A stretch of DNA of 64,000 nucleotides from Candidatus Omnitrophota bacterium (GTDB lineage Bacteria > Omnitrophota > Gorgyraeia > Velamenicoccales > JABMQK01): assembly GCA_028711115.1 (NCBI GenBank), contig JAQTSV010000001.1:1176928-1240927 (forward strand), in the 5' to 3' direction. The first letter of the stretch is position 1. Each line of letters starts with the position of its first letter. A model generated the notes under the pieces. That model worked only from the letters and a program-made list of their open reading frames with translations. It ran no database searches and was not told where the DNA came from. The position numbers and the translations under genes are program-made. This document shows, piece by piece, positions 10,319-60,897 of the stretch.

Positions 10319-10330
10319 TTGAACCTCTCT

Positions 10331-10445
10331 AATGAGACCATAACTTATGGAGCACGAGCGAACATAAGTTATTTGGTCGAATTAGATCCTTGACATTTAC
10401 CTATATAAATTCGTTTGAATAAATGTCAAGGATAAAATTCAGACT
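10331..10445 (-). repeat. ORF-less copy of a repeated intergenic element (inverted repeat plus hairpin plus leader) in the argJ-argB gap
   Basis: Inverted repeat TCCTTGACATTTA (10387..10399) / TAAATGTCAAGGA (10420..10432). Hairpin ATAACTTAT (10340..10348) / ATAAGTTAT (10364..10372). Both flanks align with the element around the GIY-YIG gene at 24888..25240. Confidence 0.6.
10402..10429 (-). promoter_or_regulatory. sigma70-like promoter inside the repeat element, facing argB
   Basis: On the minus strand: TTGACA (10429..10424), a 16-nt spacer, then TATATA (10407..10402). It lies about 85 nt upstream of the argB ATG. Confidence 0.4.
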
Positions 10446-10478
10446 TATAATTTATGTTCCATAAATTATGTCTTCATT

Positions 10479-11687
10479 TTAATTATATTCTGCGTTTATC
10501 TTAATATATTCTGGCGTCAAATCGCAGGTATAAACCTTGCTCTCGGAGCTGCCATTATTAAGATTTATATTAACTTTTATAAATTTCGAAACGACAAGCA
10601 GTTTTTTATTCTTTAAAGGATTAATCTTTCCCTTATTGAAAATTTTATGGGAATTAAAACTTATTTCCAATTTATCTTCGTCTACCGGAATTCCTGCTGC
10701 GCCAATTGCGGCGACAATTCTGCCCCAATTTGGGTTTCCGCCAAACATCGCCGTCTTAAACAAATCTGAATTCGCTACTGCGTTTGCGGCTGTTTTCGCC
10801 TCTTTTTCATTTTTGGCGCCCTGGACTAAGATTTCTATTTTCTTGGATGCGCCTTCAGCATCGTCTATAATCGTCTGCGATAAAGACTGGCAGACATAAG
10901 ACAATCCTTTGCAGAATTCGGCGAAATCTTTATTCTTTTTAACAATAGTTTTATTTCCTGCTGCAGCGTTTGCCAACAATAAAACCGTGTCATTTGTGCT
11001 TGTGCAGGCATCAACACTGATACTGTTAAATGAATTCTCTACGGCGTACTCCAAAGCCGTTTGTAACAAAGACTTTTTTATGGCGGCGTCCGTCAGGATA
11101 AATACCAGCATAGTCGCGTGTTTTTGCGCTTTTTCCAGGTGAGGATAAATCATCCCGGCGCCTTTTGCCACGCCGCTGATTATAACCGGCTTATTTCCTA
11201 TATTAATTTTCACAGAACAAACTTTTCTAAATGTATCCGTGGTCAGAATTGAATCCGCGAAATTTTTCAATCCGTCCTTATTTAACTCTTGAGAAAGTTT
11301 GGGAATTCCATTTTTTATAACATCCACGGGCATCGGTTTTCCGATAATGCCGGTTGAAGCGATGAGAATGCTTTTTTTTGCGATATTTAATTCTTCTGCC
11401 AAAAACCCGATAATACTATTTGCGTCCTTTATTCCTTTTTTGCCGGTAAAGCAATTTGCATTTCCGCTGTTGACTATAATAGCCTTGCTTTCTTTATTCT
11501 TTAACTGGCTTATGCAAACCTTTAGCGAAGCTGCTTTTACTTCATTAGAGGTAAATACTCCTGCGGCTATTGATGCAAACTCTGAATATATAAGCCCCAG
11601 ATCTTTTCTCTTCGATCTTTTAACTCCGCAATAAATCCCTGAAGCCAGGAAGCCTTGCGGAAGGATTGTTTTATTTAAAATTTTCAT
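10479..11687 (-). CDS. argJ: bifunctional ornithine acetyltransferase / N-acetylglutamate synthase
   Basis: 402 aa. The ArgJ autoprocessing region HATMLVFILTDA is present. Confidence 0.9.
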   Translation of the reverse strand: MKILNKTILPQGFLASGIYCGVKRSKRKDLGLIYSEFASIAAGVFTSNEVKAASLKVCISQLKNKESKAIIVNSGNANCFTGKKGIKDANSIIGFLAEELNIAKKSILIASTGIIGKPMPVDVIKNGIPKLSQELNKDGLKNFADSILTTDTFRKVCSVKINIGNKPVIISGVAKGAGMIYPHLEKAQKHATMLVFILTDAAIKKSLLQTALEYAVENSFNSISVDACTSTNDTVLLLANAAAGNKTIVKKNKDFAEFCKGLSYVCQSLSQTIIDDAEGASKKIEILVQGAKNEKEAKTAANAVANSDLFKTAMFGGNPNWGRIVAAIGAAGIPVDEDKLEISFNSHKIFNKGKINPLKNKKLLVVSKFIKVNINLNNGSSESKVYTCDLTPEYIKINAEYN

Positions 11688-24645: not shown

Positions 24646-24873
24646 TTATTGATTTTCTTTTCCCTTCTTTTCCCTTCTTCTCTTTCTCTCATCAATGGTT
24701 TCTATCTTTATAACCTCTCTGCCGTTATAATAACCGCAGAACTGACAGATGTGATGAGGCAATTTGCTTTGTTTGCATTGAGGGCAAACAACAGTCTGAG
24801 TAGCATTTATTTTCCAGTGCGTGCGCCTTCTTCTTCCTCTTGTTATTGAATGTCTGCGTTTAGGTAAAGCCAT
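24646..24873 (-). CDS. rpmF: 50S ribosomal protein L32
   Basis: 75 aa. Has the MALPKRRHS start and a zinc-ribbon CPQC...CQFCG. Confidence 0.9.
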   Translation of the reverse strand: MALPKRRHSITRGRRRRTHWKINATQTVVCPQCKQSKLPHHICQFCGYYNGREVIKIETIDERKRRREKKGKENQ

Positions 24874-24887
24874 AATTTACTCCTTTA

Positions 24888-25240
24888 ATGAGCATATAAC
24901 TTACGAACACACAAGTGTGAGTAAGTTATATATGCGAATTAAACCCTTGACATTTTGCCTCAGGAAAAGACTCTATTAATCTTTTTATGGTTTCTTTCCT
25001 GGTTTTTCCATTCTTAAACTGCATCTCGCGCCTGAATGCCTGCGAACGCGAATTAAACTCTTCATAATAAACCAATTCGGGCTGCTTATTTCTCGTATAG
25101 TAAACATTGCCTCTTGTATGGTCTTTAACTCTCTCTATCAGATTATTGGTATGACCGTAGTATTTAGTATTGTCATTACACTGCAAGATATAAACATAAT
25201 AAATTTGATTCATAGCAAAATGTCAAGGGTCAAATTCAGA
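24888..25240 (-). mobile_element. GIY-YIG ORF enclosed by a 14-bp perfect inverted repeat inside a repeated intergenic element (possibly mobile or REP-like; speculative)
   Basis: CCCTTGACATTTTG (24944..24957) and its exact reverse complement CAAAATGTCAAGGG (25216..25229) bracket the ORF. The outer flanks (AAATTCAGAC side, and the hairpin plus CTCATTA side) align with the ORF-less copy at 10331..10445. Confidence 0.3.
24926..25213 (-). CDS. small GIY-YIG (URI-domain) nuclease family protein
   Basis: 95 aa. Shows the GIY-YIG core pattern YVYILQC...YYGHTNNLIERVKDH...Y...E. The last 10 codons are encoded by the inverted-repeat arm and the hairpin arm of the surrounding element. Confidence 0.75.
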   Translation of the reverse strand: MNQIYYVYILQCNDNTKYYGHTNNLIERVKDHTRGNVYYTRNKQPELVYYEEFNSRSQAFRREMQFKNGKTRKETIKRLIESFPEAKCQGFNSHI

Positions 25241-25300
25241 CAGCAATTTACGTTTCCGCCAAAATTATAGAGGGATCCGCCTATTTTTGTGGCGGACATT

Positions 25301-25732
25301 TCATTCCGTAAATTGCGTCTTCATTTGACAATTACATTTCTCTTTATTCAAATCTTTGCCGCACTTTGGGCATAAACCCCGGCAGTCGGGCTTACACAAA
25401 AATTTTATAGGATAATCAAGGATAATTTCTTCTCTTATGTTTTTTGTAACGTCGATAAATTGTCCGGCCTCAACCAAAGGATAATCTATGTTAAAATCTC
25501 TTTCTATTTTACTGACATATTCCTTAAGGCAGCGCGAACAAATAAATTCTGCCGTGGCTGTAAAATGCGTCTTGGTAAAGAGCATCTGTTTCTCTTTTGT
25601 CGCATCGGTAGAAAGACAAATATTGCCTTTATATTTTACTTCGCTGTTATCCAAATCAAATTCTGCGGGCGTTAAAGATTCCTGGAAATGCTCGGTCTTA
25701 TCTTCTTTCAGCCTCAACACATCTATCTTCAT
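25301..25732 (-). CDS. yceD: YceD/DUF177 family protein (large-subunit rRNA accumulation)
   Basis: 143 aa. Has the Cys clusters CSRCL and CKPDCRGLCPKCG, in the classic position upstream of rpmF. Confidence 0.8.
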   Translation of the reverse strand: MKIDVLRLKEDKTEHFQESLTPAEFDLDNSEVKYKGNICLSTDATKEKQMLFTKTHFTATAEFICSRCLKEYVSKIERDFNIDYPLVEAGQFIDVTKNIREEIILDYPIKFLCKPDCRGLCPKCGKDLNKEKCNCQMKTQFTE

Positions 25733-34477: not shown

Positions 34478-34487
34478 ATAATTTAAC

Positions 34488-34604
34488 CCCGGCAGCGTCC
34501 TACTCTCCCACACCATTACTAGTGCAGTACCATCGGCCCTAGAGGGCTTAACTACCGTATTCGGAATGGGAACGGGTGTGGCCCCTCTGGTCTGACCACC
34601 AGGA
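34488..34604 (-). rRNA. rrf: 5S ribosomal RNA
   Basis: Minus strand begins CCTGGTGGTCAGACC...CCCATTCCGAATACGG and ends ...GGGAGAGTAGGACGCTGCCGG. About 117 nt. Confidence 0.93.
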
Positions 34605-34676
34605 AATAATAACTTGTATATTATGAACCAACTATATAAAACTGACTATAAAGCCTTGCGATATTCAAATTACATG

Positions 34677-37695
<3,019 letters not shown>

Positions 37696-37750
37696 TAAAA
37701 ATGATCAAATTATTTGATTTTACCTCTCGGCTTTATAGTGTCAGTATTAT

Positions 37751-37767
37751 ATAGTTGTCAAAGAACA
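37751..37767 (-). promoter_or_regulatory. boxA-like antitermination element in the tRNA-23S spacer
   Basis: Minus strand TGTTCTTTGACAACTA matches E. coli boxA TGCTCTTTAACAA at 11 of 13 core positions. It is preceded by a CTTATC...GATAAG hairpin (boxB-like). Confidence 0.5.
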
Positions 37768-37889
37768 AAACTTATCTATTTTGAAGATAAGAAATTTTTC
37801 TAGGGATTTTTGTCTTGATAATGAAATTTTAAGTGGAGGCCGAAATACATTATTTCGGCACTCACCAATAATTTCATTAATGAAATTAT

Positions 37890-37965
37890 TGGTGGAGCAG
37901 AGCGGGATCGAACCGCCGACCTCATGCTTGCAAAGCACGCGCTCTCCCAGCTGAGCTACTGCCCC
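37890..37965 (-). tRNA. tRNA-Ala (anticodon UGC), CCA encoded
   Basis: Minus strand reads GGGGCAGTAGCTCAGCTGGGAGAGCGCGTGCTTTGCAAGCATGAGGTCGGCGGTTCGATCCCGCTCTGCTCCACCA. Confidence 0.95.
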
Positions 37966-38055
37966 GAAAAAACAGATCTAAGAATCAAGATTTAAGAAAA
38001 AATCAGAAAACACAATCTTTCTTATCTTAATTCTTAGCTCTTAGTTCTGATTTAA

Positions 38056-38129
38056 TGGGCCCAAGTGGATTCGAACCACTGACCCCAGTCTTATCAGGGC
38101 TGTGCTCTAACCAACTGAGCTATGGGCCC
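38056..38129 (-). tRNA. tRNA-Ile (anticodon GAU), CCA not encoded
   Basis: Minus strand reads GGGCCCATAGCTCAGTTGGTTAGAGCACAGCCCTGATAAGACTGGGGTCAGTGGTTCGAATCCACTTGGGCCCA. Confidence 0.95.
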
Positions 38130-38474
38130 ATATTTGGCAAACCGCATATGGCTTATAACAAACTGCCCTGATTCAATTTGCTATTTGTCCCGCTTTGCGG
38201 GACCCCGCTGAATTCTTTTATTCTAGTGCGGGGCTATTTGCCATTTGCAAAAAATGGAAGCCCTCTGCTTGCGCTGGTTATTCGCGCGAGAGTTGACTCC
38301 CGTAAAAATTCTCTACCGAAGACAGATTCGCCTGCGGAAAAAAATTAAATAGCCAAGTTCGGTGAGTTAAGCTCTCTTCTTTAAAACCTTAACAACACCA
38401 AATCTCCTTCTTTACTTATTTTACTTATTGATTTCTCCAAAATCTTTGCACGCGTTTTGCGCAGGCAAAAAATT

Positions 38475-40066
<1,592 letters not shown>

Positions 40067-60715: not shown

Positions 60716-60776
60716 TATTTATTCATTATACTTTTTATTGGCAACTGGCTGCCTTTTCTTAATAATATAAGGATTA

Positions 60777-60897
60777 GGCCCTTTAGCTTTGCCTGCTAAT
60801 TTACCAATCAGCAGATTCGCCGGGTTTTCTCCGGCAAATGCCCCATTCTTTCGACCCTTTTACGGTTCGGCCGTTCCGACCGAATGGTTTGCCCTTT
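60777..60897 (-). ncRNA. candidate structured RNA element (three or four hairpins) in the pilC-pilA intergenic region; strand and function unknown
   Basis: A locally GC-rich 120 nt within an AT-rich spacer. Pairings: GGCAAA+CCATTC (60833..60848) with GAATGG+TTTGCC (60882..60893); an inner hairpin near 60860..60881; GCCGG/CCGGC (60819..60835); and CTGCTAAT/ATCAGCAG (60793..60814). Confidence 0.3.

Follow-up and report, generated by a model that had tools for sequence, protein, structure and literature searches.

A minimal GIY-YIG nuclease gene in the central loop of a dispersed palindromic repeat family of Omnitrophota

We analysed a stretch of 64,000 nucleotides from Candidatus Omnitrophota bacterium (assembly GCA_028711115.1, contig JAQTSV010000001.1, positions 1,176,928 to 1,240,927), called the window below, in which a small open reading frame (ORF) for a GIY-YIG nuclease lies between yceD and rpmF and a similar palindromic sequence without an ORF lies between argJ and argB. 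We found that the rpmF and arg loci are the ORF-bearing and the ORF-less state of one dispersed palindromic repeat family of Omnitrophota. The unit consists of two imperfect terminal inverted repeats of about 70–85 nt, each made of an end motif, a local hairpin, a linker and a CCTTGACATTT arm; the arms form a central hairpin, P2, whose loop contains either about 10–45 nt or the gene for the 95-aa GIY-YIG protein. From the way in which the centres of the copies resemble each other within a genome, we lean towards the view that a selfish GIY-YIG nuclease drives intragenomic, multi-site homing into the P2 hairpin of its own repeat family.

The two loci and the anatomy of the element

All genes of the window are carried by the minus strand, and all features described in this section are given on that strand. 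The initial annotation, which was made from the sequence alone, had placed the GIY-YIG ORF (24926..25213) between perfect 14-bp inverted-repeat arms, and the coordinates of the arms turned out to be exact: CCCTTGACATTTTG occupies 24944-24957 and its exact reverse complement 25216-25229. It was also right that the repeat arm and the adjacent hairpin arm supply the end of the ORF, since the right arm, together with the linker and the first strand of the hairpin that follows, contributes the last ten codons (AKCQGFNSHI) and the stop codon. The ORF-less sister reported in the argJ–argB gap was found as well, with its own perfect 14-bp inverted repeat ATCCTTGACATTTA (10386-10399 / 10420-10433) around a loop of 20 nt. 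The number of 11-mer matches in the window is by itself not significant (four matches, with at least that number in 9 of 100 shuffled sequences). The full-length similarity of the two loci is far above chance, as follows from their alignment across about 150 nt, from the dozens of copies that the motif recovers elsewhere and from the score of the arg copy against the covariance model of the family (137.5 bits, E=1.8e-33), of which the arg copy is one of the 11 seed sequences. In the 64 kb of the window the covariance model identified these two copies only.

To define the conserved unit, the rpmF copy was compared with homologous ORF loci of other genomes and with dozens of ORF-less copies, and the boundaries were derived from the family consensus, the coordinates of the motifs and an empty yceD|rpmF site in locus L093. 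On the coding strand the order of the parts is TCAAATGAAG, the hairpin H1 (..ACTTAYGG-loop-CCRTAAGT..), the linker nnGnCTGAATTTGAC, the left arm CCTTGACATTTTn, the loop or ORF, the right arm nAAAATGTCAAGG, the linker GTTYAATTCG, in some copies an extra hairpin, the hairpin H3 and finally GCTCATTRA. Both loci that had been annotated are thus real, but their extent had to be revised: the rpmF element is wider (24885-25328) and includes an additional upstream hairpin and TCAAATGAAG, the arg element spans 10329-10481, and the sequence GTCTGAATTT, which had been taken for an outer flank marking the boundary, is actually an internal linker.

The complete ORF-bearing element (24885..25328) is 444 nt long and reaches from the end of the YceD coding sequence to the rpmF ribosome-binding site. 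Its 5' terminal motif TCAAATGAAG (25319..25328) is the 5' strand of the closing helix P0 and provides the yceD codons ..Q M K; the motif is kept at the 5' end in nearly all copies, and in the consensus fold its partner is the CTCATT of the 3' end. Hairpin H1 (25243..25316) has the stem GCAATTTACG / CGTAAATTGC, in which compensatory changes are seen among copies, and its loop contains the yceD stop codon. The left linker CTGAATTTGA (25230..25239) is near-invariant among copies and forms the base of P2, pairing with TTTAATTCG through one conserved G.U and one mismatch. The left arm CCCTTGACATTTTG (25216..25229) ends 2 nt 5' of the start codon of the ORF, which has no ribosome-binding site of its own. 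On the other side of P2, the right arm CAAAATGTCAAGGG (24944..24957) lies within the ORF and encodes ..KCQG, and the right linker TTTAATTCG (24935..24943) encodes F N S. Hairpin H3 (CATATATAACTTAC ... GTAAGTTATATG; 24893..24934) holds the stop codon of the ORF and, like H1, varies by compensatory changes. The 3' terminal motif CTCATTAA (24885..24892) is the 3' strand of P0, and a motif matching it was present in 37 of 38 loci selected by protein. The host AGGAG ribosome-binding site, with its spacer to the first base (A) of the rpmF start codon (24873..24884), adjoins the element and lies outside it. The complete arg copy (10329..10481) has 153 nt, from the argJ stop codon to the ribosome-binding site of the downstream amino-acid kinase gene, and is composed of H1 (10443..10471), the left arm ATCCTTGACATTTA (10420..10433), the 20-nt loop (10400-10419), the right arm TAAATGTCAAGGAT (10386..10399) and H3 (10337..10377).

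The element supplies the final seven codons and the stop codon of yceD (..QMKTQFTE*), and the YceD tail MKTQFTE (7 residues; 25301-25321) is accordingly element-encoded. Relatives whose YceD is 62–69% identical have the same tail (QMKTQLTE or QTTTQLTE), and others finish with CNCKDN or similar. The shared tail indicates that the insertion between yceD and rpmF is old and changes the terminus of the protein.

We also noticed further repeats inside the element. The H1 loop of the rpmF copy harbours a nested 21-nt palindrome, TCCGCCACAAAAATAGGCGGA (25276-25296), and comparable nested GTCCGCCAC..GGCGGAC hairpins occur in H1 loops of other genomes (L059, L067, L075, L080, L090), which suggests that a second small repeat family targets the same loop. 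A third nested palindromic module, TTCGACTTTGCTCAGGG..CCTGAGC..GTCGAAGG, was seen in the H1 loops of L004/L033, L073, L019, L031, L048, L077 and L090. In addition, H1, H3 or the extra hairpin is sometimes replaced by a hairpin with a CCTTGACA..TGTCAAGG stem (L014, L043, L088, L033, L036, L045, L055, L066), so that the arm motif behaves as a reusable hairpin module.

The repeat family, its nuclease and its fold

When one genome per GTDB species was scanned with a 19-base left-arm pattern, 79 stretches were found. About 68 of them lie in about 20 metagenome-assembled genomes (MAGs) of Omnitrophota, some labelled Planctomycetia, and the remaining 11, from other phyla and with the right arm missing, are chance matches; the repeat family is specific to Omnitrophota. 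Matches with both arms comprised 50 ORF-less copies with loops of 9–47 nt, eight copies with the ORF (258–268 nt between the arms) and one partial copy, and ORF-less copies outnumber ORF copies by about 6:1. The genome CAZDNS has at least 21 copies, CAYJQR 13 and JACRHO 8. With the covariance model we obtained 83 non-redundant copies, at most four per 8 kb, among them copies overlooked by the pattern. The ORF copies occupy unrelated contexts (glycosyltransferase|NTP-transferase, NAD synthase|AsnC, ExbD..|hypothetical, helicase|flavodoxin).

Comparison of orthologous spacers revealed empty and filled states, at yceD|rpmF as well as at other sites. Between yceD and rpmF we observed the ORF copy of the window, ORF-less copies with other nested repeats (L090, L091), a 40-nt remnant (L094) and an empty site (L093). 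The empty site reads TAG-AAGGAG-CGAAAT-ATG, and the presence of AAGGAG-N6-ATG in it shows that the ribosome-binding site is the host's. In the remnant (L094:1900-1960) the sequence TGTCAAATGAAATCATAACTTGCG|TTGTCATTTAAAAAGGAG fuses the 5' end of the element to its 3' end; it is the footprint of either a near-complete internal deletion or an imprecise excision. Elsewhere, L050 is filled and L049 is empty, with overlapping ATGA stop and start codons at that site, and one orthologous site carries the ORF in L043 and is ORF-less in L036. No match to an empty allele of the L007 site was found in the JGI metagenomes. What remains of the ORF in the ORF-less loops is its 5' end joined to its 3' end, and L059 is a half-deleted intermediate with 153 nt left between its arms. 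This deletion series agrees with the earlier proposal of a nuclease cassette in the loop of a palindromic element, or of a deletion derivative in the case of the arg copy. The outcomes named at the outset as fatal to that proposal were a lack of further copies, a spacer conserved by vertical descent and a similarity at chance level; the family has many copies at unrelated loci in many genomes, its spacers are polymorphic and its similarity exceeds chance.

The association between the ORF and the arms is obligate, down to a protein identity of 47%. A metagenome search seeded with peptides of the catalytic domain only returned 47 loci (47–81% identity), and 42 of these homologues, chosen by protein alone, have CCTTGACA 5' of the start codon together with TGTCAAGG at the 3' end of the ORF; the left arm is present upstream in 45 of the 47. 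Further inwards, the extensions of the two arms vary in concert (for example ..CATGTTTCC / GGAAACATG..), and the homologue with 47% identity, located between queA and tgt in a deltaproteobacterial MAG, has a bracket of 16 nt. No bracketing inverted repeat was detected in three distant stand-alone GIY-YIG genes, from a Legionella plasmid, a Rhizobium phage and B. subtilis (yazA), and we therefore rejected the idea that the bracket is a trait of all stand-alone GIY-YIG genes. A phage origin was also rejected, as IMG/VR gave one chance match to the left arm, with the right arm absent, and the phage and plasmid homologues are less than 50% identical.

The 95-aa protein matches the Pfam family GIY-YIG (PF01541) with 46.3 bits (cut-off 22.6; E=5e-12) and consists of the catalytic domain alone, with no auxiliary or DNA-binding domain. 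Residues Y8, Y18, R28, H32 and E63 are invariant in 40 homologues, and Y19, G20 and N68 each occur in 90% or more of them. Between genomes, the proportion of nonsynonymous differences (pN) was 0.10–0.29 and that of synonymous differences (pS) 0.63–1.0, which is saturated; where it could be measured, dN/dS was at most 0.1. The ORF is under purifying selection, with its catalytic residues intact. The arms are under selection as well: they stay identical over evolutionary distances that saturate the synonymous sites of the ORF. It is clear that the right arm is conserved as DNA and not as protein, because it is read in different frames, as KCQGFNS in most homologues and as KMSRV in others. The best solved relatives by sequence are the UPF0213 proteins 1ZG2 (BH0048; E=5e-9) and 1YWL (EF2693; E=4e-7) of the PDB. 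The structure was predicted with a mean local confidence (pLDDT) of 89.8, and Foldseek ranked 1ZG2 first, followed by Slx1 (7CQ3, 4XM5 and 6SEH, including complexes with branched DNA; TM 0.56–0.60), with UvrC in 48th place. Both 1ZG2 and 1YWL have been assigned to the Slx1 family, whose prokaryotic members are minimal, stand-alone and mostly vertically inherited (Dunin-Horkawicz et al. 2006, PMC1564403). By sequence and predicted structure, the protein is thus best classified as a domain-only GIY-YIG protein of the Slx1/UPF0213 branch. Neither PADLOC nor NCBIfam gave a match for it, so that an origin in a defence system is not supported.

Next to its primary structure, the family has a well-conserved fold. 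RNAalifold, applied to 11 simple ORF-less copies, returned a perfect four-way junction with zero unpaired bases at the junction, formed by P0 (AAUGA / UCAUU), P1, which is H1, P2 (GAAUU..AAUUC and the arms) and P3, which is H3. Compensatory change was present in 17 of the 53 pairs of the consensus fold, and when the 83 non-redundant copies were aligned to the model, Watson-Crick pairs made up 91% of the cells. H1 and H3 each co-vary internally and not with each other, which means that two local hairpins are conserved rather than one long left–right duplex. Folded as RNA, the arg copy adopts the four-way junction (z=-7.3), and the minimum-free-energy RNA fold of the whole 444-nt rpmF unit retains the junction, with the ORF looped out of P2 (z=-7.2). 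Folded as DNA, both strands of the arg copy give the junction (z=-8.9 and -10.2). No Rfam family was found at the gathering score. At relaxed E-values there were only spurious hairpins of plant microRNAs; in the window these were weak long-hairpin matches of positions 10346-10467 to precursor models (MIR7993 and others). For lack of an Rfam match we rejected known RNA families, including ribozymes and group I or other introns.

The copies occupy a precise position at operon junctions. Of the copies found by the pattern, 32 of 34 are in sense to both neighbours; for the model-found copies the figures were 43 same/same and 5 opposite/opposite (n=48), and among ORF loci chosen by protein alone 23 of 25 are in sense. 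The upstream stop codon is mostly no more than about 6 nt from the 5' end of the element and is often the TGA in AAATGAAG or a TAA immediately before it, the downstream start codon follows CTCATTRA by 10–16 nt, and the ribosome-binding site adjoins the element. Copy-specific direct repeats of 9–12 nt, derived from the ribosome-binding-site region, flank 6–9 of 53 copies, a number that exceeds all of 2000 permutations. A target-site duplication of fixed length was not found: it is lacking in most of the 53 copies and in both empty/filled pairs. In L077, L030, L043, L068, L025 and L087 one and the same non-consensus ribosome-binding-site sequence of 9–12 nt stands on both flanks of the copy, for example AAGGGAGATTA or GAAGGAGGGTCT. 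In about 35% of the copies AGGAGGTCA stands right before AATGAAG, which creates a ribosome-binding site and an ATG for a short, non-conserved mini-ORF.

Copying of the centre and competing explanations

Within genomes, homogenisation affects only the centre of the copies. The loops were at least 80% identical, and many 93–100% identical, in 30 of 87 within-genome pairs, whereas none of 693 between-genome pairs reached this level. The hairpins of the same 30 pairs (H1 0.54, H3 0.60) were no more alike than those of between-genome pairs (H1 0.57, H3 0.51). In the homogenised loops the 5' end of the ORF is joined to its 3' end (ATGAATGCAAC|TTTTCTAAGG). Their orientation relative to the arms varies, with three forward and nine inverted in CAZDNS and a further case in CAYJQR (L011 vs L052); in every ORF copy examined the ORF is forward. 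Similarly, two ORF copies of one genome share about 90% identity across the ORF and the arms, and their H1 and H3 are unrelated. Homogenised loops, the occurrence of both loop orientations and the mosaic ORF copies together indicate copying centred on P2 and not movement of the whole unit. Whole copies within a genome had a maximum identity of 0.89, with means of 0.70 within and 0.66 between genomes, and a recent burst of whole copies is therefore unsupported.

It is this P2-centred copying, together with the obligate link between ORF and arms and the hydrolytic chemistry of GIY-YIG enzymes, that makes us favour a homing-type selfish nuclease. According to this model, the nuclease would be the repeat family's own selfish enzyme; in ORF-less copies it would recognise the junction or the paired arms, and it would cut these copies in or near the P2 loop. 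The break would be repaired from the centre of another copy, with the conserved arms and linkers as homology, and since the two arms are inverted repeats of each other, a loop could be installed in either orientation. Subsequent loss of the ORF through internal deletion would produce the gene-less majority, and the ORF-less copies would represent the decayed or empty state of the homing site. New chromosomal sites would be colonised only rarely; this step to new junctions must be rare, as 0.89 is the highest identity between whole copies of one genome. That the protein cleaves, what it cleaves and that the cut drives the copying are points that we infer. A more far-reaching version, which we put forward only tentatively, is that the element belongs to a new class of bacterial mobile elements with the minimal Slx1-type nuclease as their only protein. 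The nuclease would recognise the four-way junction or hairpin formed by its own repeat and, by structure-specific cleavage, would both drive homing among copies and seed new ones at operon junctions. The element encodes no ORF besides the GIY-YIG domain, and the protein lies outside the recognised transposase classes.

Several observations weigh against homing. No genome has near-identical whole copies, and hence there is no sign of recent spread to new sites. The protein lacks a DNA-binding domain, which leaves the catalytic domain, dimerisation or structure recognition as the basis of any sequence-specific recognition of the arms. Simple homing does not account for the repeats of the ribosome-binding-site region around 6–9 copies. 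Finally, the strong sense bias fits selection at the mRNA level at least as well as a DNA mechanism, and the same is true of the mismatches in the 83 copies, among which G.U outnumbers A.C (75 vs 43) when the sense strand is read.

The last two points would also fit a repeat that is a structured RNA useful to the host, serving mRNA processing, stability or translational coupling at operon junctions, with the GIY-YIG gene as a passenger or in a domesticated role and with conservation due to the RNA function instead of selfish copying. Such a role would suit the sense orientation, the exact position between stop codon and ribosome-binding site, the compact fold that brings the two side by side, the prevalence of G.U and the fact that old, diverged copies retain the core. 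However, the copying of loops in both orientations is an event at the DNA level, both DNA strands fold equally well, no Rfam family matches, the sites are dispensable, since empty alleles with a 12-nt spacer exist, and the link between ORF and arms holds down to 47% identity. We regard an RNA function as the sole explanation as improbable; it is compatible with homing and both may coexist. Slightly less improbable, though still unlikely in our opinion, is an autonomous transposon with MITE-like derivatives (miniature inverted-repeat transposable elements), in which the nuclease would excise or copy the whole 150–450-nt unit and bring it to new operon junctions. A cut at P0 in the self-folded four-way junction is one way in which this might happen, and ORF-less copies would be mobilised in trans, likewise as whole units. 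Terminal inverted repeats, an ORF-less majority with the same ends as the ORF copies, unrelated insertion sites with empty/filled polymorphism and the pairing of the element's ends in P0 are all as a transposon would have them, Slx1, the fold family of the protein, cuts branched DNA, and the direct repeats around 6–9 copies would find a place here too. Against this, near-identical centres (93–100%) flanked by unrelated H1 and H3 mean that the unit does not move whole, target-site duplications are inconsistent and absent from both empty/filled pairs, and no genome holds near-identical full copies. Moreover, GIY-YIG enzymes hydrolyse DNA and are not known to rejoin it.

The arms contain TTGACA, the -35 consensus, which in the arg copy is followed by TATATA at a distance of 17 nt, so the repeat might be read as a sigma-70 promoter/operator shared by rpmF and argB, with a vertically inherited GIY-YIG gene. 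As a general explanation this is refuted and we give it hardly any credence: an acceptable -10 at 16–18 nt exists in no more than 2 of 51 ORF-less copies, a promoter scanner was negative at both the rpmF and the arg locus, the start codon of the ORF copies lies 10 nt past TTGACA, the element sits mid-operon at dozens of unrelated junctions, and empty alleles exist. A RAYT/Y1 transposase as the mobiliser was likewise rejected, as such genes are present at only two loci and the nearby Y1_Tnp gene has different flanking repeats. The inverted repeats that flank this RAYT-like gene (L005:771-1247, minus strand), AGGGACGGTTCTCAA.., are its own and show no relationship to the GIY-YIG element.

As for the remainder of the window, ArgJ, the ArgB-like amino-acid kinase, L32 and YceD were confirmed with Pfam as neighbours of the two copies. 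A complete rRNA operon (16S-tRNA(Ile)-tRNA(Ala)-23S-5S) is located at 34487-40066 on the minus strand, and a match to the cyclic di-GMP-I riboswitch at 60737-60815, on the same strand, scored 35.7 bits, barely over the gathering threshold of 35.

Relation to known systems and significance

The initial annotation had likened the arrangement to REP/RAYT or to pairs of MITEs and autonomous elements, and had not recognised the combination as a described system. The comparison is apt as regards dispersed repeats with an ORF-less majority; it is less so for the mode of spread, where homing-like copying is favoured over cut-and-paste transposition. As in REP/REPIN-RAYT systems, the palindromes are dispersed, intergenic and mostly gene-less, inverted copies of the repeat lie on both sides of a small enzyme gene and the hairpins are conserved via compensatory change. 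However, the enzyme here is a GIY-YIG hydrolase and not a Y1 HUH (PF01797) tyrosine transposase, the gene lies within the central loop of the repeat, and a 150-nt junction of four hairpins takes the place of a 20–40-nt hairpin or doublet. MITEs with their autonomous partners and the mosaic repeats (Correia, ERIC, RUP and BIMEs, and the PATEs of IS200/IS605) share with our family the terminal inverted repeats, the ORF-less majority arisen by internal deletion, co-transcription with neighbours and a mosaic of hairpin modules and linkers, but our family lacks a transposase of the DDE or HUH type as well as a consistent target-site duplication, and the centre is homogenised independently of the ends.

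Free-standing and intron-encoded GIY-YIG homing endonucleases (T4 Seg, I-TevI) also place a nuclease gene between co-oriented genes, and they spread by break repair with co-conversion of nearby sequence, for which the homogenised centres would be the counterpart here. In contrast to the 95-aa Slx1-branch domain, they have 200–250 aa with DNA-binding domains and belong to the UvrC/homing-endonuclease branch; they address one allelic site, whereas the apparent target here is a multi-copy repeat in the same genome. The stand-alone Slx1-like proteins of UPF0213/COG2827 (BH0048, EF2693, B. subtilis YazA) have the same minimal fold and catalytic residues, but they are regarded as vertically inherited, repair-type genes (PMC1564403). 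Our search of the literature brought up no paper in which GIY-YIG genes are connected with palindromic repeats of bacteria and none on repeats of this kind in Omnitrophota, and a minimal Slx1-type GIY-YIG nuclease paired with its own repeat family is apparently undescribed.

The stand-alone Slx1-like GIY-YIG proteins form a widespread group for which neither a function nor a substrate is defined, and here one subfamily is tied to a DNA motif and a self-folding junction, which together make a concrete candidate substrate that can be synthesised. If the nuclease drives the copying, it would be a homing endonuclease aimed at a dispersed repeat in its own genome, a life-style which, if true, would stand between homing genes and systems of the REP/RAYT type. 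Should the element indeed represent a new class, the unit of about 440 nt would be among the smallest autonomous mobile elements known, and the UPF0213/Slx1-like family would gain its first defined substrate. The repeat family also shapes the operon junctions in which it resides, through stop codons, C-terminal tails, adjoining ribosome-binding sites and nested repeats. In Omnitrophota, a phylum of small genomes with no cultured model organism, it will confound gene calling in MAGs.

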